DNA of 63,915 nucleotides, the filler included, from Licmophora abbreviata (taxonomy: Eukaryota), in assembly GCA_900291995.1 (NCBI GenBank). It is 8 parts of 8 records of this genome, joined end to end, with 100 filler letters (N's around TTAATTAATTAA, not from the genome) between each part and the next. Parts side by side here need not be neighbours in the genome. Positions count along the whole stretch, not along the records: positions 41,046 to 43,445 come from OLMU01000065.1; positions 43,546 to 48,155 come from OLMU01000067.1; 6 more parts are not named here. One strand, given 5' to 3'. Of the stretch, positions 31,280-63,576 are shown in pieces. The notes under the pieces are model-generated. The model was not told the origin of the DNA. It was given only the letters and a program-made list of their open reading frames with translations, and did not search any database. Made by a program: the position numbers and the translations under genes. Within the stretch, counting starts at the first letter, position 1. Each line of letters begins with the position of its first letter.

Positions 31280-31379
31280 NNNNNNNNNNNNNNNNNNNNN
31301 NNNNNNNNNNNNNNNNNNNNNNNTTAATTAATTAANNNNNNNNNNNNNNNNNNNNNNNNNNNNNNNNNNNNNNNNNNNN
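31280..31379. other. Assembly gap with six-frame stop linker (N44-TTAATTAATTAA-N44)
   Basis: Identical 100-nt spacer occurs seven times in the window; artificial. Confidence 0.97.
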
Positions 31380-40223: not shown

Positions 40224-41988
40224 TCACTGAAGTGCTGCGTCTGATTTCTTGATACCGACTGTGCCACAATATAGAACGAAACAACAGGAGGTGAGCACGA
40301 ACGTGCAAATCAAGCGCCGGTATCCACTCACGTCACACCTCGAAAACAGCATGCTTACGCGTATTGAACGAATCCCAGCGATTCTCGGTGTCAACACCCA
40401 ATCGGATCCATTGAGTTACAATCTTCTTTTCGCCTTCAAAAACAGGACAGCCTGAGTGCTCAGTGAATCCAGTGTCCATTACGCGGCTTTCGGGATCGAC
40501 GTAGCTAAAAAAGATGGCGTTGCCTGCGACAGGTTTGACGTGAACACCTGCATTTCGAAAATTCGTCGCCCCGCCCGATGTAGGAAGGGTGCAGTACATG
40601 ACCATGGTCGCCATCCTGTGAGAATTATTGAGCACACAGCGTCAGCTCTCATCAGAGCTCGATTGGAGCGACAAATCGCATGCACTCATGTCTTGCGGCA
40701 GACAGAACAACGTACCTGGTCCCAGTTTTGTGTGGTAGACCTGTGCAATCACCGTCGCAGTGAGGGGTGTATCGATCGGGCTCTGTGTCATTCTTGCCAT
40801 GCCCAAAATACTGAATGGACATTAGATCTTCCTGGCCAAACTCTTCGATTCCGAGCCCTAGCACATGGTTCGTATAATCGTAAACCCTTCTGCTCAATCG
40901 TGCGATTGGGTCACCCTGTCGTGTGCAAATAAGTTAAACGTAGACNNNNNNNNNNNNNNNNNNNNNNNNNNNNNNNNNNNNNNNNNNNNTTAATTAATTA
41001 ANNNNNNNNNNNNNNNNNNNNNNNNNNNNNNNNNNNNNNNNNNNNGGTCATTGTGAATATGAAAGGACGACGAGACGCTCTCCTACGCGACACAGTGGTC
41101 TGATAATCTCACCTGCTCTTCCTCGTCCCATTGAACGGTGATTCCAGCCTGCATTGCTTTTCGATTCGGAGAAAGCTGTGATCCTCCCTTCCCGTCGGCG
41201 ACCGTGGCACGATGCAGTGTTCGGGCGGCTGTCGTTTCCATCGCTTCGCATTCCTCGACGGAGATAAAGTCTTCGATGACGTGAATCTTGCTTGAAGGTC
41301 GATCGTGTTTGATGTGGGCAGTTCGCACGTATCCGTTCCGATCCGTCCATGACTCTGTCTCTAGATCAGCCGTCGTGTCCAGTGAATCGTCAACGCACGT
41401 GTAGTTCTCGAGCAGTTCCGCCATATCCGTACGAACCGACGCCTGAAAGGCAATCTCCTCATTTGCCTTCTCCAAAGTACGAGCGACACCTGACTCGACA
41501 CAAGACGACAGCAGTTCCATCGCTTCCAGCGCAGCGTCTGCAGAGCCTCCTGATTTCTCAATGATCGACTGCGCCTTGGCTTGGCAGCGGTCGACGATGT
41601 CTTCCGCTTCGTCCTTGGCGGCCGTCTTGTTGTCAGTTTGCTCAATCACGAGTCCCTCCAGCACTCGTACCAGTTGGTCATCGTTCTCCGATACCACAAA
41701 AGATCCAGTACGGCAAGTCTGATCCGGAGTATTACAAACGCCCGTCTTTTCCGAAGGAGCTTCCCGAAATTCAAACTCATGTCCCACAAAGGAATTCAAG
41801 GGCATCGATGCGCCCTTGAACACAAAGGGCGTGGACATGAGAACACGCTCGCCTGTCTGAGCATTTATCCAATACACTTCCACATTGGAACCACTCTCGT
41901 TCAACATCCGGATGGAACGACTCATGGGCCGTCCCTGCACGATAGTAAACGCGGCCAGAGCCGCCACAAGGAATCGTAGCAACGTCAT
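40224..41988 (-). CDS. Secreted 2OG-Fe(II) prolyl 4-hydroxylase with an N-terminal VHL-beta-like domain
   Basis: Signal peptide; IHVIEDFISVEEC, YTPHCDG (HxD), RMATMVMY, GGATNF, TEHSGCPVFEGEKKIVTQWIR. Introns 41111-40916 (contains the assembly gap), 40715-40616 and 40358-40259. Confidence 0.9.
40946..41045. other. Assembly gap with TTAATTAATTAA linker (within a P4H intron)
   Basis: Same 100-nt spacer as the other gaps. Confidence 0.97.
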
Positions 41989-42502
41989 GGTCGATCTTCT
42001 CTTTGCTGCAATGTTGCTGTCGCAATGCTCGTGACTCGTGATTTAATTTGATACCGCGTTTCTACGTTAAATCTCAGTAGAGGGTCATTGTGATATTCTC
42101 CGCCATACTTTGGGCCTGATGAAGCCGGAGAACGAGGGGAGCCGCATAGCCGCTGCGACGACAATCCGACACCGACACGGTTCAGAATACCTTTCCCGCT
42201 AATTTCTGAAATTGCAACGGGCTCGACCAGTCGGGCACGTGTCACACTCGCCGATGCTATGTCGTCCCTCTTGCCGCACGTACGATCGCCGGGCTGGGCA
42301 CAAGCTCTTTTTCCACCGAAAAACTGAGCCTCGCTTCGCTTTCCGCTCGTTGTAGGACGAACCGCGCCATGCCTGGCATCAGCGTTTTCGATAGATCGAC
42401 CCAAGTCTAGAGTCCACCACCATGACTTGATGGAGCAGGCGTAAAAACACGGATGACTATAACTTAGATAACATCAAAATAGAGCATCGCAGTAGAGCCC
42501 GA

Positions 42503-44127
42503 TTACTTGAAGTCGGACTGCATCACGTTGAGAATATCGTCACGCACAATCAACTGCGGGTCAAACTCTTCGTCCTCTTCCATAGTCGCAGTTCGCATCC
42601 GCCGACGGATCTCAGTTCGGGCTCCGCTCAGAAGTATCTCACTGACGCGACCGTTGCGGTCATTGCGCCATGCGGCAGTTGTCTCCTGCTCGAGCATATC
42701 TGCAATCGTACCTTCTGTTAGATCTTCTGTGAGATCGAAGCCCTTCGCTTCGCACAGGTCGACAAAGACTCTAGACAGTTCGTGGCAGCTGTAGTCCGGG
42801 AATTCAAACGTAAGCGGAAATTTCTTGCGCAAATCGCTGTGGTAGGCCAAAAAGGTTTGCATCTCCACGGGGAAACCCGCAAGGATGATCAGTGGGTAGC
42901 TGTCGCCCGAGCTGGCCTTGGTACTTTCTTGCATGGAGTGAACGATCTCGGCAATAGCGTCATTGCCCGTGTCGAGACGGTTGCGTCTTGATGCCATTCC
43001 CAGCGTGTACGCCTCGTCGATGAAGAGAATACCGCCGCGGGCTTCGTCCAGAACTTCGCGCGTCTTGAGAATGGTTGTCTCGCGGTCTCGGCCAACAAGG
43101 TCCATGCGCTCTACTTCCAAGAACTTTGGTTTGCGGAGAAGACCAAGCTCGTGGTAGGCCTTGGCCAACAAACGCGCAACGGCTGTCTTACCAGTACCTA
43201 CAAGAAGAAAGAATGGACGAGATTTCTGAGCTCATGGACTGCTTCACAACCTACAAACGTACGACAACGCACAATGACATACCTGGATTGCCGACAAATA
43301 CCATGTGACCAGCACGGGGCCTGCCCGAGTCGTCCACTAGTCCCGGAGAAATCAGCGCAAGCGGAGAGGGACCTCGTGTCGTGCGAGAAGTAGCGGGAAT
43401 CAGTGACTCGCGGAGATCGCTAATCTCGGCGGAACGACGCAACCCNNNNNNNNNNNNNNNNNNNNNNNNNNNNNNNNNNNNNNNNNNNNTTAATTAATTA
43501 ANNNNNNNNNNNNNNNNNNNNNNNNNNNNNNNNNNNNNNNNNNNNGTACTGGTTGCGGACAGTGGCACCTTCGGGGTGACGACCGAGCAAGAGTTCCACC
43601 GTGTCGAGCGGTGCCTGCCACATGGCAGCTTGGTGAATTGGAAGGTTACCAGCGCTGTTGGGCTGTGAAGCTCCCCCGGGATAAGCCTTGAGAAGGGATT
43701 CGACCACATCGCCACTAGCTTGGAAGGAACATGCAGCGTGGAGAGGTAGATTGCCGCGCTCATTCAAGCGGGAAGCTTCTTCCGGAAAGGAAGGGGCCTA
43801 GAAGATGGCAGAGAAGGATGATGAGTAAGCAGTGCTAGTGATGTCTCTAGAACAGACAGTTCGCAAAGGTCGAACAGGACATAAACGATGCGATGCAGTT
43901 TGGCGATCGCAAGTCTTGGTTGCATGAAAGTCGCAACGCCTAATACAGTTTTGCGCCCCGCGTTCTTGCAAGCACACAGCATCATCGAGTTCGGCCACAA
44001 AACAGCCACCCACGAAAAGTTATATCTCCAGCCCCATTTCATTCCCAGGGATCGACAGGCTCACCTTGCTGCGGCTCAAGAGCGCTCCAAAGCCCTTGCA
44101 AAGGTCGTGCAGGGTGGTATCCGTCAT
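42503..44127 (-). CDS. Ankyrin-like repeat + CbbX/CfxQ-type AAA+ ATPase, copy A (middle hidden by a gap)
   Basis: Exon 1 MTDTTLHDLCKG...; intron 44064-43798; GNLPLH/GNLPIH ankyrin-like repeats. Walker A HMVFVGNPG|TGKT is split by intron 43282-43198. Walker B ILFIDEAYTL, then ILAGF, FEFPDY and RNGR. Confidence 0.85.
43446..43545. other. Assembly gap with TTAATTAATTAA linker (inside AAA copy A)
   Basis: Same 100-nt spacer as the other gaps. Confidence 0.97.
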
Positions 44128-44423
44128 GATGAGAAGCAGGTATTGCGTTTAGAGTTTACGTCAATCGGTTTCAGCTGCGACGCGACAAAATCAGAAGGTC
44201 CTACAGTTGACGAACAAGTTTAGGTCCGGAAAGGCTTCAGTTAAAAGACCGAAACCAATGGATTGGCAGCTTGAATGCACAACGACGACAGCAACACCAT
44301 TGATGGGCTTCTTGAGGTCTCTGTCTCCCGCCGTGACCTGGTGCATGCGTTGAGCGGCTAGCTTTTAACGCACCCAACGCATGATTTGCTAAGTCTTGGA
44401 TGTTATGTTATAAACCGTAACGG

Positions 44424-44440
44424 AATGTAATCATTACATT
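44424..44440. promoter_or_regulatory. Palindrome AATGTAAT-C-ATTACATT in the bidirectional intergenic region of the ANK-AAA pair
   Basis: Perfect 8-bp inverted repeat with a 1-nt spacer, inside an AT-rich patch (44400-44470), 94 bp upstream of the ATG at 44534. Confidence 0.4.
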
Positions 44441-44533
44441 TAGTGTATTTATACATGAATAAATGCAATTCTCCTTCCCAACGCTCGCCTTTCCGTTCAA
44501 GACACAAAATCACATATCGTGATCAAAGTCACC

Positions 44534-46615
44534 ATGGCGAGCAGCGATCTTGGAAGCACCGGCGGCGGGAGCGCTGTTGCCCCTTCGGGCGACTTTGTGG
44601 ACCTGCATGAACTCGCCAAAGGCTGGAAAGCTGCCATCGCGAGAGCGAAGGATCCAGCGACGAGGTAGGACGATGTGTGACTGGGACGATAGTCGGTGAT
44701 GCGTTCCACGCCATCACTCCGCGTGAGAATCCGACATGACCTCTGTAGCTCACTAGTGCCTTTCCTTTCACATGAATCGTCTCGCATTTTTATAGACACG
44801 AGACACAAGTGAAAAATGATCGCGGGAACCTTCCACTGCATTCTGCGGCATCATTTCGGGCTCCCCTTGAGGTTGCAGGTACGTGAACTCATTTTCCGTT
44901 TGGTCCAGCTTTGTGCCATGATCCAAGATTCAACGCTTACAAGTCGCTTCTCTTGTTTTTTTAATTTACAGAGGCCCTGCTTGATGCTTATCCCAATGCT
45001 GCATCGATTACAAACAATTACGGAAACCTGGCTCTTCACTTCACCGCCTGGAAGAAGGGTCCACTTGAGGTAGAAAAGTTGTTGCTCAAGGTGTACCCGG
45101 AGGGAGCTGCTCAGCAGAATAACCATGGGAACTTGCCGTTGCATTATGCTGCGCATTACAATGCTCCTCTTGAAGTCGTCGAGGCTCTCTACCACGCCTA
45201 CCCCGAAGGCGCCGCGCAGAAGAACAACGACAACAACACTCCTCTCGACTTGGCAATTGCAGATGGTGCCAGTCCCAACGTCGTTGCTCTCTTGCAAGGC
45301 AAGAATATCCCGCCAACAGACGACGAGGTCCTAGAGGGCGCCAAAGCTCGTTGTGAGCGTATGGAGAAGGAGTTACAGCGTCACATGGAAAGGCACGACA
45401 CCACTAACGACGATGTGGAGACTGTTTTGTCGCTGTTGATGGATGTACGTGACGGAATCCCACATGCGTTGTACTCGGCCGGAGTTGACCCGGGCAAGGC
45501 TGGCGACTTGGATACTCTCCTGGATCAGGTAAGAGATCGTGTTGAATTGATGGTGTGTACGGGTGTCGTTGTCGACATTCAAGTGATCTTACCGTTTGCC
45601 ACTTGTTCATGCGCACCAGGTTCGAAAGGCTGCTTCGGAGGACAAAGGGCTTGGTGGTGGCGACGAGTCTGCTTTGCACGCCTACGGACAGGCACATGAT
45701 GAGGAAGAGGAAGCTCAGATTATTCAGGACGCCCTCTGTCCTGCCGATGACGAAGTCGAATCTGCCCTCGCTGAATTGATTGGAATGGAGCCGGTCAAGA
45801 ACCAGATCCGTGGGCTTCGCCGTACCCTCGAGATGGAGAGCGTAAAGAAGATCGCCTCACGTCACATGGCGTTCGTCGGAAATCCCGGCACAGGAAAGAG
45901 CACTGTTGCTCGTCTCTTGGTACCTCTGCTCTATCAAATCGGAGCGGTCAAGTCGCCTACGATGGTGGAAGTCGGCCGCGAGGACCTGATTGATCGCAAG
46001 AGCGAAGCACGCACGGTCTTCAAGACTCGTAAGGTTCTCGATCGCGCCGCGGGAGGCGTCCTTTTTATTAATGAGGCCTACACGCTACTCCCATCTACTG
46101 GTCGTCCTCGTGGACGAGACCATGGCGCTGCGGCACTGCGTGAGATCGCACGGGCACTTCCCACCGGAAGTCCACTTGTTATTCTCACTGGGGCTCCTCT
46201 TGAACTGCAACGCATTCTCACGAGTGACATTGGGTTCAAGGGACAATTCTTGACTAGGATTGAGTTTTCAGATCCGTCATCGATGCAGATCTCCCGCATG
46301 TTCATGTCCAAGCTCAATGAGAAGGGGCTGGTGCCCGTGGAGGGCCTCACGACGGAGTACCTGTCCGAGCTGCTGGATACCAACACGGACGAGGACTGGC
46401 GATCAGAGCGAAATGGTCGTATTAGTGATTTACTTATTCAAGGTGTACGGACCGAGATGCGAAAGCGCAGGGCAGTCATTGACGATCAGTCCAAAGCATC
46501 GATGAGCCCAATGAAGATCTTGAGTCCAGGTTCGAACAAGATGCCCTCGTTTACACCAGAAGAAATCACAGTGACTGTGGAGGATGTGCAGAATGCCATT
46601 GTCAACGGCATGTAA
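44534..46615 (+). CDS. Ankyrin-like repeat + CbbX/CfxQ-type AAA+ ATPase, copy B (degenerate Walker B)
   Basis: Exon 1 ...DLHELAKG; introns 44665-44795, 44879-44971 and 45529-45619. GNLPLH/GNLALH/NTPLD repeats; LIGMEPVKNQI; HMAFVGNPGTGKS; VLFINEAYTL; RNGR. Confidence 0.9.
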
Positions 46616-46847
46616 AAATCCATCCATCGCGTTCGATTCATTTTCAGTGTGGAGCGTGCTAAGTAGTTTATGTTAGTAGCCTCGAACGTCATCAGTAGTT
46701 TCTAACTTGAGCAGTCTCTAACTAGAGCCCTCAGTGCCATGCCTCAATTGCATGTTTGCGTGCTCGATAGAACGACACATGTCCCGCCTCAGTTCTTCCA
46801 ATGGCCGGAAACGGTGGTGTCCTCCTTCAACTTCTAGCACGCAGCCC

Positions 46848-48155: not shown

Positions 48156-48255
48156 NNNNNNNNNNNNNNNNNNNNNNNNNNNNNNNNNNNNNNNNNNNNT
48201 TAATTAATTAANNNNNNNNNNNNNNNNNNNNNNNNNNNNNNNNNNNNNNNNNNNN
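48156..48255. other. Assembly gap with TTAATTAATTAA linker
   Basis: Same 100-nt spacer as the other gaps. Confidence 0.97.
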
Positions 48256-48303: not shown

Positions 48304-51002
48304 ATGTCATCCGGCGATATCTATGGTGCGATCTCGGCGGAAGGCGAAAGCACGGCGTATGGATTTTCGGGGCAGTCTATGTCCCATGGAGACGACGGCC
48401 GCTCGCTCCTGTCGACAGACGCTTCTACGGTTCCCGAGTTTCTCCAGTTGAACTACTTAACATCTAAAGCTTTCGCTCCAGCTGATGACTCGGTAGATGC
48501 CAGGACTGAATCAGAAGAGAGCTGGGAGCTCGTTAGAGAGTGGTTGCGATCTCATCCCGCATTGGAAGTTAAATCTGCTGCTGAACAGAAAGGCGAGAAT
48601 GGCATGACAGCCCTCCATTTTGCTTGCCGCAACGGACCTCCCATTGATGTCATTAATGTATTTCTTAGTGTCGCCGGCGAGACGGCGACTCGGCCTGATA
48701 ATTTTGGGTGGCTCCCTTTGCACTACGCGTGTGCGTGCAACGCAGCCCTCAACGTCATCACGCGGCTATCTTCCACCTTTCCTGAAACCAAGGTGGCGAA
48801 GGATCGACGGGGACGGACTCCTCTCATTTTTGCCGTCGAAATCAGTGGGAACAAACCTGATCTCGTGGCAGTTTTAAGTTCTACTGGAGCTGCAGCGATT
48901 CCCGATGACAATGGCATGTTGGTAAGTGCTGTCTCTATGGAACAGACGAGATAATCACCCTGAACATTTTGTCTCAACGAGAGTCTGGCTTCTTCTTCGT
49001 TTTTGTTCTCCTCTTGCACAGCCGCTCCATTATGCTGCTGCGACAGGTGTATCCGAGGAAACGTTGCTGGTCCTAACCCATGCTCATCACGACGCCATTC
49101 ATACGCGCGATAAGCGCAACCGGACACCATTACAGTTTGCATTGTAAGTGTGCTTGGTGGTGCGCTCTGGTAAAGTGCTCCTGATTGTGCTCACGTCTTT
49201 ATGTATCTGATGCCTCGCACTTGCAGGAGTAATGCTGGTCGACCAGCATCTCCCGGTGCTGTCCGTCATATACTGAATCTCGACCCCAATCTCGTCAACG
49301 GGGAAGAAGATAGCTCTCTCCCACTTCGCGTCTTGTCGGAATACGCCGCAACTTTAGGTCAGGACACTGCAGAAGAGTTGCAGTACCGGAACAACACATT
49401 TAAGTGTTTCGAGTACGTCCTTGAGGCCGACCCCCAACCGACGGCCGCCTTCTTTACAGCACTTCAGGGATTACCAAGTTGGCTCTCGGAGCGAGCGGTA
49501 GTCATCCCGGCTGTACAGGTTCTGCTCAACGAGAAGATATCGCAGAGGTTCCCCACAGCTGTCCAAATGCTCGATTTCTATTTCTTGATACTTGTTATTG
49601 TCGCCTACTCTGCGAACGTAATTGATGCTATCAACACACGCTTCGATGGAGACGACAAGAACGGAATTGATGGTATTCTACTCATTCTCCAGTACGTGAG
49701 CATTGCCTACTTTATCCTTCGCGAAGTAGTGCAAGTGATCTCTCTCATCAGTCTAAAAGCCCTCAATGTGTGGTTTAAAGCCACTTCGAATTGGCTGAAT
49801 CTCGTTTTCATTGTCCTCGTGTTGACCATGAGTATCCTGATGGACTCTGGAAGCGGCGACAACTTCACGTTCCGCACCGCAGCGGCCGTTGCCGTCATTT
49901 TCATTTGGCTCAAGGTATTTGTGTACCTGCGGAATTTCTCGGTCGATTTTGCCGTCTTTGTCGGAGGCGTGTTCTACATTGCTAGACGCCTTGTGGCGTT
50001 CCTGGTGTGTTTGGGCATTATGCTGGTTGCGTTTGCGCAAATGTTCCGTACCGTCTTTCAGCAATCGGATATGTGTATTGACAGCGAGCCATATCGACCC
50101 ATTGAGCTAGTCCGGTGCGAAGAACAGACAGATTCGAGTTTCCCTTATTGTCGTGCTTGGCCGGCATTTCTCGATGTTTACACGATGCTTTTGGGAGAAG
50201 TCGACGAAACGATGTTTACGTCGGATCTCTTCGCCACGATTCTGGTGAGTTGAACGGGAATTACTTCTTTTAAAATTTGCGAGGGCCAGTGTGAACTCAC
50301 CCTCGTCGATCTTTCACTTTCCTTACACAGTTCATTTTGTTCATGTTCTTGATTGTAATTTTGCTCGCGAACGTCCTTATTGCGATTGTGACGGACTCTT
50401 ATAAGGTAATTCAGGATCAGCGCGCGGCAATCGTCTTCTGGACAAATCGTTTGGATTTCGTTGCTGCCATGGATGCCATTGCGAACGGACCTTGGAAACA
50501 GCGTATTGGCTTGCCTGACACCGCAGAAGTGACGATCGAACCCGAGGCTTCCATAGGATCGGACCTCTGGAAAAGGATTATTGATCTATTCGAGGATGAA
50601 ATTGACGGCGGCGTCACGTCAGTCGAGTTTTGGGTTATTCCTGCGTTTCGAGTCTTGACAGCGGTTGTCATTGTTCCGTTTTGGCTCGCTCTCGGTATCC
50701 TATCATGTGGATGGCTATGGCCCCCGCAAATTCGTGAAGCGATTTTTACAAGCGACGTGTCCAAACACTCTTCCGAATCCGCTGAGCAAGATGACCTCCG
50801 AAAGACGCAAGTTCAGAATCTTACGAAGGAAGTGAAGGAGTTGGAGATTGACTTTGAGAAGGAGCTGGCCATGGGCAGGACGCAGATTGTTGAAACCAAG
50901 TCTTCGATTGCCGGACGAAAGGCTGATATTTCCAAAGAAATGAAGGATATCAAACGAATCATCGCCACTCTGTTTGAGCAGCAATCGTTCGTCGGTACTT
51001 AG
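48304..51002 (+). CDS. Ankyrin-repeat TRP-like cation channel (5' end possibly across the gap)
   Basis: Ankyrin repeats (GMTALHFAC, GWLPLHYAC, GRTPL, PLHYAA); six TM segments; pore YTMLLGE; S6 FMFLIVILLANVLIAIVTDSY; TRP-box-like FWTNRL; C-terminal coiled coil. Introns 48922-49021, 49144-49226 and 50245-50330. TTGAC...TTAG at ~48263-48276 looks like an acceptor for a missing upstream exon. Confidence 0.87.
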
Positions 51003-54300: not shown

Positions 54301-55975
54301 CCAGAGGGCAACCCTTTCGACAGATGGGGGCGATACTACAGGGAGGACCGCTGGAGCCTCAGCTGAAGGTGTATCCTCGGCGGCATCTGAGGTCGAGACG
54401 ACAACCACAACCAGTGATGCACAACCAACCTCCAGGGAAGTCGAGAAGAAAGAAACCGATTCCGACTCCGACGGTGATGACGACGACCTTGCCGCCATGC
54501 TAGAAGAGGANNNNNNNNNNNNNNNNNNNNNNNNNNNNNNNNNNNNNNNNNNNNTTAATTAATTAANNNNNNNNNNNNNNNNNNNNNNNNNNNNNNNNNN
54601 NNNNNNNNNNGGTGATGACGACGACCTTGCCGCCATGCTAGAAGAGGACTTAAAAGATGTGAATGTTCGACAAACCAACCAGCTTGTGGCTGAACAGATG
54701 CGTGGAAAGACCGGCGACGAAGAAGCATCGAGAGGCCTTCTTGGCCAACAGATCCGTGAGGGCGGAAAGGACTACAGCAAGGATGCAAGGGAGCTTGCTG
54801 CGCTGAAACGACAACGGGAGGAAGAGCGTGCCGCACAGGAAGGTGGAATTGGTGGTCCCGAGACGTCTCCGAGTGTAGGGCGCGATCTATCCATGGTCGA
54901 CAAGAAGGTTGTTCGCCGACGAATCACTAAGACGTTCCCTGACGGTCGGCAGAAGACTATATTCAAGTTTGTTATTGCGCAGAACGAAGTCGAGAAAGTC
55001 AGCCAGCGGAAACAGGAACGAGCGCACGAAGACGACACCGGAAAGAAGAAGTACGTGTACAAGCCAGATCCACGACCCGTCGGACATGCCATCTTCGAGG
55101 ACGAGGACGACGTGGATCACCACCGATCTCGCTCTGGCTTTCGACTTCAAGTGCAGAGACGAACGATCCATGGGGCCTCTGGGACGATGAAAGCGCCATC
55201 ACGGTCCCAGAAGGGCGCTGTGCGAATGGGAAAGCTCAAACATAGAGTTTCTCACGAAAAGCGACTGAAGAAAAGAAAGCGCGAAGAAGAGGAAGCTGAT
55301 CTCTATGTGGCAGCGTCAAAGCGCTTGGGAACAAACAACAGAAGACAGCGTGGCTCGGCAAGGGAGAGAATGCCGCATGTCAAACTGGCCGATAGGCTAG
55401 AGTCGATTCGAAACAGGGCCGAGAAGGAGCCTGGTTCCGAGCCATTTCATCGTCCAGTCAACCGACGTGCGCTTCCTCGCTACTATGAAGTTATTCACGA
55501 CCCAATCGATCTTCAGACAATACGTGATAAGAACCAGAGGTAAGGGAACACTTTCAACGCATTCTGCGCGCTGAGCGGCAGGGCGACTCACCATGTCTGC
55601 TAACAATACACTGCTTATAGGTATGAATACAAGACTGCCGACGCTTTCCTTCGCGATTTTGATCTTATGAAGAGAAACGCTGCCAAGTTCAACACAGCAA
55701 CCAGCGTGCTCGCGGGAAACGCAAATAATATCTACGAGTTTGTGCAGGCCGAAATCGAGAAAGATCGAAGTGAACTCACGGACTTGGAGGAGGCCGTCAA
55801 GGAGCAGCTCAGCGGCAAGAAGAAGAAGAAGCGCAAGAAAGCCACGGCGAAAACCAAGCCGAGTCCTGGCGGCGTCAATCAAGGCGCAAACGTGGTCGTC
55901 AACAAGGATGGAGTAGCCGTCAATCTAGGAGATATTTCGGGTGATTTCAATTTCGCTGACAGCGATAGCGACTAA
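51346..55975 (+). CDS. TAF1: TFIID subunit 1 (TAF1) with DUF3591 core and one C-terminal bromodomain
   Basis: LRQYHRPR, LEYCEERPP...GMGSKIVNFYR, SNLFVAPMFRH...TDFL, EELQLAPW, LTGLGDPSGLGEGYSF, TGTVNDLRKL, LKRWDRV; bromodomain PFHRPV...YYEVIHDPIDLQTI...NAAKFN. Introns 53821-53902 and 55540-55620. Confidence 0.95.
54511..54610. other. Spurious assembly gap inside TAF1 (flanks overlap by 38 bp)
   Basis: 54473-54510 is identical to 54611-54648. Confidence 0.95.
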
Positions 55976-58041: not shown

Positions 58042-58141
58042 NNNNNNNNNNNNNNNNNNNNNNNNNNNNNNNNNNNNNNNNNNNNTTAATTAATTAANNN
58101 NNNNNNNNNNNNNNNNNNNNNNNNNNNNNNNNNNNNNNNNN
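58042..58141. other. Assembly gap with TTAATTAATTAA linker (hides the 5' end of the polyamine fusion gene)
   Basis: Same 100-nt spacer as the other gaps. Confidence 0.97.
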
Positions 58142-61518: not shown

Positions 61519-63576
61519 TTAGTGTTCAACACGGAATGGAAAGCTTTTGGAGTCCTCGATATAAACGCTCATCTGTGAGCCAGATACAATGCTCTCGTTC
61601 TCTCCGGTCACTCGAGTATTGATAGCTTGACTGCCATTCACAATCGAATCCTCCTCGTCGACCATTTCCGTCGTCTGCTCGGGGGGCTGTTTGGTGGTAC
61701 CGTCAGTCACTCGCAGATTGACCAAAACCTTTCGTAGTGTCTTAATCCGTTCTCCCTTCACAAAGTTTTCCTCTGTAAGGCAGCGCGCCTCCCTGGCAAG
61801 CTCCTTCACACTCTTTGCAAGACTGGAAGCGGCCTCTCTCGCTTCCGGGCATTCGTTCGTCTCCCGCTCGAGTTCCAGAATTCGGATCGACTGTCGCTTG
61901 TTTTCCATCTGGAGCGTTGAGATGCTCATCTTGTCGAAGCGAGCCTTGCGCTTTGTCTCATCCTGCACCTGGCTTACCTCCCGTTTCAACGCTTCGATCT
62001 CGCGTTTATCGAGATGGCTTCCATTTTCTAGGAGGCGAACTTTTTGTTCAAGCCACTGGACCTGTGCGGACTTGGACTGTTGACTGTCTTCACAATCACT
62101 TGTTTGGTGACCAATCTCGACAACCGCNNNNNNNNNNNNNNNNNNNNNNNNNNNNNNNNNNNNNNNNNNNNTTAATTAATTAANNNNNNNNNNNNNNNNN
62201 NNNNNNNNNNNNNNNNNNNNNNNNNNNGGGGGAGTGCTTGAAACATCGACTGTGTTGTCATGCTCTCCCTGAGCACGACGAAGGTTATCTTGCAATTGGA
62301 GAATCCTGAGAAGAAACTCCTCGTTTTGGTACTTGAGCTGTTCGTAGCAAACTTTGGCTCTGTGTTTGTCTCGTTTGTATCGAGCCTCCATTGTGATCAG
62401 GTCGGAGCGAAGGCGATCGGCGTAGTCCTTGGAAACACTAGGTTCGAAGCGGGCGGAAGCTGCAAAGTCTGTTTGGTCGGGAGATTGGAGACCATGAGAG
62501 GACATACTACCAATAAGACCTGTCTTGCTGCTTCTCCTCCGAAAAGGAAGGAACCGCCCAAAGCCACTCCTCTTGTCCGGTGGCAGACTGGAGTCGAACG
62601 AGTGAGACCGTTTCATTCCGTTAAGCGGGGCGCTGGCGGTGTTGCTAGCGACTTTCGCCCTCTTCTTTAGCTCTGATAGGAAGCGGCAGTCGTGTGTTTC
62701 CAAGTCGATTTCCAGTTCGACGATACGTCGTCCCTTGTCGTTGTTATCGCAAACAAGCTCATCACTTTCCCGGTTCTTCGCCAGCATCTCGTATTCAAAG
62801 CGTTCGAGCTGTTCTGCCTTGGAAATGGACTCCTTCTTCAGCCATTCAACCTCATGCTGTGTTTCCGCTAGCTTCTTGTTCAACGCAGTGAGCATTTCTT
62901 GGTAGTTTTCGGGGAGCGTCTTGGTCTCCCCGTCACTGCGGTCGATACACTCATCGGCATTGTCGTTCTCTTTCATCGAGTGGCGAAGCATGCCAAGCTC
63001 CCTCCGAAGCGACTCATTTTCCAGCTCGATTGTTTCAAGTTCAGCCTCAAGCGTGACCTGGATCTTTCGTAGCTCTGACAATTCCTCTGTTTTACGAACA
63101 AGGCGATGCTTGAGGGTAGATGCCGCTTCACTAAGGGTTACCAGCATGCCCTCGTTCTCCGGAGTGGATCGCACGCGCTCATCGAGATGTCCATCTTTGT
63201 CGCGAAGCTTGCGACGAATTTCAATCCTCTTTGATAAAGAGGATCTCGACTTGTGAGATCCTCTCCTAGGTTGAATTGGCGCTTCGTCGGATGTATCGTG
63301 CGGAGGCGGAGGAATCATCGAAAGATCGAGCTTGCTCGACGTTTCGGTTGCAGAATCGCTGCCACTAAATCGAAAGATGTCAGAGAACGAGTCGCGTTCT
63401 GGACTAGTGATGGCCGTAGAGTTGGTCACATCGTCAATGTCTTTTCCGATACTGAGCTCGCGGTTCATGCGGGTCAATAAATCGGGTGTCGGCGACTCTA
63501 CGCGGACCTTGTCTGATGCATTCTTCGATTCCGAGCCAGCGTCTCCTTGAACTAAGATCTCCATTGGCACTTTCAT
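61519..63576 (-). CDS. Uncharacterised coiled-coil protein interrupted by an assembly gap
   Basis: ORFs 62176-63609 (ATG at 63576) and 61519-61989 are on the same strand with similar heptad composition on either side of the gap. Joining them is inferred. Confidence 0.65.
62128..62227. other. Assembly gap with TTAATTAATTAA linker
   Basis: Same 100-nt spacer as the other gaps. Confidence 0.97.

Follow-up and report, generated by a model that had tools for sequence, protein, structure and literature searches.

Here, we describe a head-to-head pair of divergently transcribed genes, each encoding ankyrin repeats followed by an AAA+ module, in a 63,915-nucleotide stretch of DNA of the diatom Licmophora abbreviata (assembly GCA_900291995.1; eight parts of eight records joined end to end, hereafter the window). 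The start codons of the two genes, copies A and B, are 406 bp apart. The divergent arrangement is retained in other diatoms, and A carries an intact catalytic site, B a degenerate one. Such a conserved pair suggests a two-part protein-remodelling machine. We give about even chances to the reading that A and B form a co-regulated, cytosolic, hetero-oligomeric specialised chaperone, in which A would be the active subunit and B the pseudo-ATPase subunit. The features of the pair are as follows, with positions counted along the window.

42503 to 44127, minus strand: copy A, ankyrin + AAA+ gene of the catalytically intact type (from Pfam, NCBIfam and orthologue alignment); ATG at 44125-44127, stop codon TAA at 42503-42505
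44065-44127, 43546-43797 (open into the gap), then, on its far side, 43283-43445 (likewise open at the edge) and 42503-43197, minus strand: exons of copy A
43198 to 43282, minus strand: Walker A intron of copy A, 85 bp, GT..AG, splitting the motif as GNPG/TGKT (from splice model and orthologue alignment)
43446 to 43545, no strand: join inside copy A, 44 N + TTAATTAATTAA + 44 N, hiding about 206 codons (the remaining ankyrin domain and the helical middle)
44128 to 44533, no strand: shared 5' intergenic region of 406 bp, presumed bidirectional promoter (spacing of 352-915 bp at other loci)
44534 to 46615, plus strand: copy B, a degenerate-type ankyrin + AAA+ gene encoding 588 aa (from Pfam, NCBIfam and orthologue alignment); ATG at 44534-44536, stop codon at 46613-46615
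44534-44664, 44796-44878, 44972-45528 and 45620-46615, plus strand: exons of copy B
46054 to 46074, plus strand: Walker B of copy B, LFINEAY, with Asn replacing the Mg-coordinating Asp
46232 to 46249, plus strand: GFKGQF of copy B, aligned to GFRSRI of CbbX and GLRSRF of EccA1, with both arginines replaced

Splice models were drawn by eye and then checked by script. All introns of A and B are of the GT..AG type with consistent phases, and the models align to orthologues without indels at every junction. Both copies matched Ank_5/Ank_2/Ank and AAA (PF00004) in Pfam, and AAA_lid_6 was absent from the Pfam matches of both at E<=0.01. The copies share, in the order A/B, the motifs LHDLCKG/LHELAKG, HMVFVGNPG-TGKT/HMAFVGNPGTGKS, GGILFIDEAYTL/GGVLFINEAYTL and WRNDRNGR/WRSERNGR, and both contain GNLPLH. 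Alignment of the AAA modules gave 40% identity over 202 aa (E 9e-47) and that of the ankyrin parts 46% (E 6e-21); judged from these alignments, the paralogy is far above chance. Copy A is 84-95% identical per segment (q1-105 and q314-595) to its nearest A-type orthologue, P0122. The Walker A intron is present in copy A only, with the Walker A of copy B lying within a single exon; at other diatom loci the A match runs unbroken through this motif, and hence the intron is lineage-specific. The original prediction had proposed a divergent pair of shared architecture with these motifs, a start spacing of 406 bp and differing intron positions, with a Walker A intron in copy A alone, and all of this is borne out by the gene models, Pfam matches and alignments.

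Homologue searches, one with the AAA exon of each copy, returned full-length ankyrin + AAA proteins of about 500-690 aa, with the listings covering the best 120 matches. Including the two copies of the window, 130 ankyrin + AAA sequences were obtained, 85 of them A-type and 45 B-type, with identities among the rows printed of 70-87% within A, 55-72% within B and about 40% across types. In a FastTree tree on 92 of the 130 sequences, for which A was subsampled to every second row, the A/B split received a support of 100, and a Corethron sequence (P0257) was placed on the A side. The named sources among the matches listed were all diatoms: Mayamaea, Seminavis, Epithemia, Nitzschia, Pseudo-nitzschia, Cylindrotheca, Chaetoceros, Attheya, Odontella, Coscinodiscus, Aulacoseira and Corethron. 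The tree and the sampled sequences thus support A and B as two separate, probably diatom-wide orthogroups that include the early-branching Corethron, Aulacoseira and Coscinodiscus. Many members come from culture transcriptomes (MMETSP names), which implies that both families are transcribed in other diatoms.

Mean pairwise identity was 0.81 in the ankyrin domain and 0.65 in the AAA core of B, and 0.83 and 0.78, respectively, in A. By this measure, conservation peaks in the ankyrin domain in A and B alike, and B is strongly constrained despite its degenerate catalytic site. A profile search of a library clustered at 50% yielded among its top 150 mostly proteins with several matched stretches; the end-to-end matches among those listed were P0242, P0243 and P0257, plus partials. 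Six of the top 150 matches were scanned and were tandem-AAA-only or ankyrin-only, none having both, and distant ankyrin-AAA relatives, for example from plants, would rank below the matches listed. Two of the top matches, P0241 and P0244 (about 2200 aa), contain six tandem SpoVK-like AAA + AAA_lid_6 modules and no ankyrin repeats, and represent an unusual multi-module branch of the SpoVK/CbbX/EccA clade.

For an estimate of linkage, metagenome contigs were searched with the B-family alignment, giving 55 loci, which were then searched by tblastn with one A-type and one B-type protein. An A-type gene was found upstream of B on the opposite strand at 17 of the 55 loci, with the first exon of A nearest the 5' end of B; the remaining 38 loci offer at most 705 bp upstream of the B match. 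Sorted by available upstream DNA, the pair was present at 17/17 loci with at least 800 bp, 17/18 with at least 700 bp and 17/19 with at least 500 bp; at locus L041, with 705 bp upstream of B, tblastn gave no A match. The spacing between A and B matches in the paired loci ranged from 352 to 915 bp, and their B proteins were 48-69% identical to that of the window. Loci L013/L016 and L053/L054 are near-duplicates, leaving 15 distinct intergenic regions. As a control, open reading frames (ORFs) in the flanks were common to small groups of loci only, whereas the pair was present throughout. In Mayamaea pseudoterrestris, the orthologue of B is MPSEU_000250400 and that of A is MPSEU_000250500, both on one contig of 1,593,779 bp. 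Unlinked orthologues in other diatoms, which the original prediction had named as speaking against it, were looked for; linkage was found instead, at all 17 informative metagenome loci and in the consecutive Mayamaea locus tags. The proposal of an old duplication that has stayed linked therefore agrees with both the separate clades (split support 100) and the divergent order at 17/17 informative loci.

Positions of the Walker A, Walker B, pore-loop and finger residues were set by alignment to CbbX and EccA1, and counts were taken over the 85 A and 45 B sequences. The Walker A Lys is found in 85/85 A and 43/45 B sequences, the Walker B Glu in 85/85 and 43/45, and the Walker B Asp in 85/85 and 37/45 (Asn in six, Ser in one and Pro in one of the others). 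At the first Arg of the R-x-R element (GFRSRI in CbbX), all 85 A sequences have Arg, compared to 2 of 45 in B, 42 of which have Lys. The third position of this element is Arg in 67 and Lys in 14 of the 85 A sequences, and Arg in only one of 45 in B (Asn 23, His 12, Ser 5, Gln 2, Lys 2). A sensor-2-like Arg in the NGR motif occurs in 82/85 A and 17/45 B sequences (Tyr in 16) and is kept in the window's B.

All eight B sequences without the Walker-B Asp lie inside one 10-member clade (support 99), which holds the window's copy and named pennates and in which the sensor-1 Tyr of the GY signature is lost in 10/10. Because of this confinement, the Asp-to-Asn exchange in Walker B is a late, lineage-specific step, and finger loss the family-wide lesion of B. 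Judged from its residues, the window's B very probably has no catalytic activity: its Walker B carries Asn, its finger positions are Lys and Gln, and its sensor-1 reads GA. The proposed pairing of an active and a pseudo-ATPase subunit fits the residue counts, but the Walker-B exchange in the motif quoted there is not a trait of the B family, as non-Asp residues occur in 8/45 B sequences, all of a single clade. At the position aligned to Tyr114 of CbbX, A has Asp in 83/85 and B has Lys in 42/45 sequences, and an aromatic residue in the pore loop was seen in 0/85 A and 1/45 B sequences. Since both families are without this aromatic residue, classical pore threading in the manner of CbbX is unlikely.

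Strong NCBIfam matches of the AAA module were restricted to SpoVK, EccA and CbbX, at 95-138 bits, with RuvB next at 15.9. CbbX (TIGR02880) scored 94.8 bits for B and 94.5 bits for A vs an equivalog cut-off of 459.25, SpoVK (TIGR02881) 98.6-138.2 vs 422.95, and EccA (TIGR03922) 100.1-104.5 vs 466.65. By these scores, CbbX, SpoVK and EccA are the families nearest to the module, but A and B each fall outside all three. The best PDB sequence matches, by single sequence and by family profile, were EccA1 (9lur) and CbbX (3zuh, 3syk). An AlphaFold model of the Mayamaea B orthologue, computed from a 35-sequence alignment, had a mean pLDDT of 78.8, with the ankyrin domain and AAA core mostly above 90. 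It starts with an N-terminal cap helix (LHELAKGW) followed by four ankyrin repeats; a helical middle, about 100 residues long, then leads to the alpha/beta and lid domains of the AAA module, and the C-terminus forms a structured strand plus helix. In a Foldseek search with this model, CbbX ranked first, with a TM score of 0.69-0.75 on the target. The C-terminal strand and helix are conserved in both families (B, ...VTVEDVQNAIxNGL; A, ...IVRxDVENVIRxDFK); the element corresponds to residues 573-587 of the B-type model (46550-46612 in the window's B, 42506-42570 in A) and follows a disordered linker, with a pLDDT of about 81-84 in the B-type model. Going by the model, it may serve as a docking element.

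How might such a pair work? A, as the catalytically competent subunit, would supply the arginine fingers and the ATPase activity. B would be its degenerate, pseudo-ATPase-like partner, which retains its fold and probably also nucleotide binding. Its inability to give a neighbouring site an arginine finger and, in this organism, its missing Walker-B Asp imply a structural, pacing or regulatory role, which might be akin to that of CmP in the red-algal CbbX hetero-oligomer. The four-repeat ankyrin domain of each subunit, together with its N-terminal cap helix, probably recruits one or more dedicated clients, the two domains being near-invariant yet different from each other. Lacking a pore-loop aromatic residue in both subunits, the assembly would be unlikely to remodel its clients by classical threading. 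The domain architecture, the paralogy of the two genes, their conserved linkage and the asymmetry of the catalytic residues are observations; co-assembly, co-expression, cytosolic location and the client we infer.

Several points weigh against this reading. A has all the residues needed for an active homo-hexamer on its own. No convincing shared promoter motif was found in 16 distinct intergenic regions (the window and 15 loci): the best 8-mer, AACAACAA, occurred in 8/16 regions vs a shuffle maximum of 6 and is (CAA)n-like and low-complexity, and such words are probably a low-complexity feature of the 5'-UTR. Taxon names are available for a minority of the A and B sequences only. The Lys at the finger position of B might partly substitute for Arg. 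Two assignments are tentative: we take the NGR motif to be sensor-2 from its position, the PDB alignments ending before it, and we presume from our own residue count that the finger of CbbX is R192 or R194; as B is without both arginines, the conclusion of finger loss is independent of this choice. Finally, according to PMC11513918, finger and Walker-B mutants of SpoVK are dominant-negative when co-expressed with the wild type. Hence, mixed rings form and a finger-less subunit alters ring activity, which cuts both ways for B: a finger-less B could poison an A ring unless the two were arranged in a fixed geometry.

Among the competing explanations, it is conceivable, if unlikely, that A and B are two independent homo-oligomers that share only a bidirectional promoter, because both are needed simultaneously or use their related ankyrin domains on related clients. 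The fully canonical A and the retention of Walker A and Walker B in most B sequences outside the pennate clade are in line with this, and the ankyrin domains, 47% identical between A and B and each more than 80% identical within its family, would fit two different clients. However, in a ring made of B alone, every interface would lack an arginine finger (first Arg 2/45, third 1/45), and in the window's clade the Walker-B Asp would be missing as well. Such a ring would have essentially no activity, and yet the conservation of B is strong. Alternatively, B might act outside a ring as a pseudo-enzyme regulator that caps, sequesters or targets A, or competes for its client, an explanation to which we give a rather low probability. 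The ATPase site of B decays progressively while conservation is maintained in the ankyrin domain, the middle region and the C-terminal element, and finger-less subunits of SpoVK poison mixed rings (PMC11513918). Retention of the whole AAA fold, including the Walker A Lys in 43/45, and its modelling with high confidence nevertheless exceed the needs of a pure adaptor.

The linkage could also be a neutral remnant of an ancient inverted tandem duplication, with unrelated functions of the two genes, but we consider this improbable. Duplicates do arise adjacent to each other, the intergenic regions yielded no shared promoter motif, and some local synteny extends beyond the pair within subsets of loci. 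On the other hand, the pair was present at 17/17 informative loci although their B proteins are only 48-69% identical to the window's, flanks are shared in small groups only, and the spacing stays short, at 352-915 bp. Least of all do we expect that A and B are cytosolic or plastid Rubisco-activase-like CbbX paralogues, for which the probability is very small indeed. CbbX is the best PDB match in fold and sequence, but the score of 94.5-94.8 bits is far from 459.25, Asp or Lys occupies the Tyr114 position, and no signal-like N-terminus is evident. In addition, SpoVK-annotated branches lie outside the CbbX branch in a Tara Oceans study (PMC8119650).

Returning to the paired active and pseudo-ATPase subunits, it is tempting to speculate further that they constitute an ancient, obligate two-subunit AAA+ chaperone of diatoms, which works without threading on a dedicated, possibly diatom-specific cytosolic client and whose genes have stayed head-to-head since before the diatom radiation because the subunits are needed in fixed proportion; we hold this extended version only tentatively, and doubt it more than we credit it. 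To our knowledge, it is uncommon for paralogue pairs to stay head-to-head throughout an entire eukaryotic phylum, and such pairs tend to encode proteins required in fixed proportion. With one canonical and one naturally finger-less AAA+ subunit, the present pair amounts to a natural experiment on the use of pseudo-ATPase subunits in AAA+ assemblies. It also extends the recently defined SpoVK-EccA-like clade, which consists of specialised chaperones, by a eukaryotic branch with an ankyrin fusion, points to a strongly conserved client pathway in diatoms, which are major primary producers, and is directly testable in transformable model diatoms.

Copy A is interrupted by the join at 43446-43545. 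The window contains seven identical joins of this composition (31280-31379, 40946-41045, 43446-43545, 48156-48255, 54511-54610, 58042-58141 and 62128-62227), and their length of 100 bp is therefore nominal. These joins carry a 12-base, six-frame-stop linker between contigs, and genes crossing any of them may be incomplete. In A-type orthologues, the residues between both gap edges number 206 in the median (range, 181-237), from which it follows that about 0.6 kb of copy A coding sequence is missing from the assembly. The reading frames of copy A are open to both gap edges, and, to judge from the coding sequence, copy A is likely intact in Licmophora abbreviata. The metagenome contigs on 43546-46700 are 151-357 nt long; one of them (run X2) extends 174 nt past 43546 into the gap, and among them none bridges the gap and none covers both genes. 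The sequencing runs with this stretch are of DNA from marine, seawater and oyster metagenomes, in which it makes up small shares; none of the runs listed was of RNA.

The break between the contigs coincides with a common intron site of A genes, as copy A resumes at residue 314 and an intron near residues 310-315 of P0122 occurs in the A genes of loci L005, L008, L013, L015, L016, L026, L028, L034, L045 and L051. An intron near residue 312 is lacking in the A genes of L002, L004 and L053-L055. The Walker A intron of copy A was seen at none of the loci in these two groups.

To the left of copy A, relatives of the ORF at 41083-42042 (minus strand) and of 40336-40641 were found at locus L008 (5900-9238). 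There they lie downstream of B and not of A, indicating that the neighbourhood was rearranged while the A-B pair was kept. The ORF at 41083-42042 (minus strand) has a signal-peptide-like start, MTLLRFLVAALAAFTIVQG. The sole further match to the pair within the window is an ankyrin-repeat coding stretch at 48526-48930 (plus strand), to the right of the join at 48156-48255, with 27-36% identity to the A and B ankyrin domains; no AAA module was detected beside it.

The closest known system in terms of structure is CbbX, the best structural match of the B-type model (TM 0.69-0.75). In the red-algal activase formed by CmN and CmP, a Walker-B mutation was tolerated in CmP and not in CmN, according to a table in PMC5437159; CmN and CmP thus set a precedent for a catalytic subunit paired with a mainly structural paralogue. 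The same source describes that Y114A abolishes the activase function of both bacterial and red-algal CbbX, with ATPase activity kept. The diatom proteins, in contrast, are far below the equivalog cut-off, have no Tyr114 equivalent and exceed CbbX by an ankyrin domain (about 190 aa) and a helical region (about 100 aa). The original prediction that A and B are not Rubisco activases is upheld by the CbbX scores (94.5-94.8 vs 459.25 bits) and by Asp (A) and Lys (B) at the Tyr114 position. As it had also stated, no hydrophobic N-terminal signal or plastid-type presequence is evident, by the crude proxy of Kyte-Doolittle hydrophobicity (median best 10-aa mean, 1.20 in A and 0.64 in B). The genes are of nuclear type, with introns. 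In PMC8119650, a Tara Oceans tree of AAA domains contains SpoVK-annotated branches beside diatom CbbX and outside the CbbX branch, which were excluded there without further comment and which may be these very A and B sequences.

EccA, the AAA+ protein of type VII secretion (T7SS), shares with the diatom proteins a helical-repeat scaffold followed by a CbbX-like AAA module, and EccA1 is the top PDB sequence match for B. EccA differs by its TPR repeats, compared to ankyrin here, the diatoms being eukaryotic hosts without a T7SS, and the EccA score of 100-105 bits is well below its cut-off of 466.65. The Seminavis orthologue bears the name 'EccA3', which was assigned automatically.

The combination of ankyrin repeats and an AAA+ module has precedents. 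Skd3/CLPB, an ankyrin-AAA+ disaggregase of animal mitochondria whose structure is solved, was the only natural protein among the listed Foldseek matches to align over the full ankyrin + AAA length (551-557 columns), and it is among the ESM Atlas feature neighbours (0.90). However, its AAA module is of the ClpB NBD2/AAA_2 type, there is no Pfam AAA_2 match in A or B, and the TM score on the query is 0.27-0.29. Skd3 threads substrates via a pore-loop tyrosine and is homo-oligomeric. A land-plant (Streptophyta) cluster, with AAA and Ank on 100% of its members, ranks directly behind the two diatom clusters in the Atlas (0.97) but is shorter, at 433 aa. We take this cluster to be of the Arabidopsis AT3G24530 type, a gene which the literature found lists in tables only. 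The claim of an architecture without described function thus holds in that literature searches, including ankyrin with CbbX and ankyrin with SpoVK, found no description of the diatom ankyrin-AAA+ family, and it does not hold for ankyrin + AAA+ as such, in view of Skd3/CLPB and the land-plant cluster. As far as these searches reach, the conserved divergent pair and the catalytic asymmetry between A and B are new. The silica-morphogenesis proteins dAnk1-3 were set aside as candidates, as PMC9894196 describes them as having ankyrin repeats only, and 'AAA' occurs 0 times in its main text.

In sequence and fold, the clade of SpoVK-EccA-like proteins comes closest to the pair, likewise having a single AAA module behind a variable N-terminal domain. 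As set out in PMC11513918, SpoVK-clade proteins serve as specialised chaperones for a narrow range of targets, and it is their variable N-terminal domains that recruit the substrates. The N-terminal fusions listed there are TPR, beta-helix, beta-prism and SF-1 helicase, compared to ankyrin in the diatom pair. As clade markers, the paper gives GY at sensor-1, Asn at position -4 from the first arginine finger, and retention of the sensor-2 Arg. At sensor-1, A has GF (85/85), and B has GY in 34/45, with GA in the window's B. The residue four positions before the finger is Asn in 29/85 and Gln in 52/85 A sequences (His in the window's A), and Asp in 36/45 and Asn in 1/45 B sequences (Asp in the window's B). 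A keeps both the first finger Arg and the sensor-2-like Arg, whereas the first finger of B is Arg in 2/45. By overall similarity of their sequences, both families thus belong with the SpoVK-EccA-like clade, each deviating from its signature in a different way.

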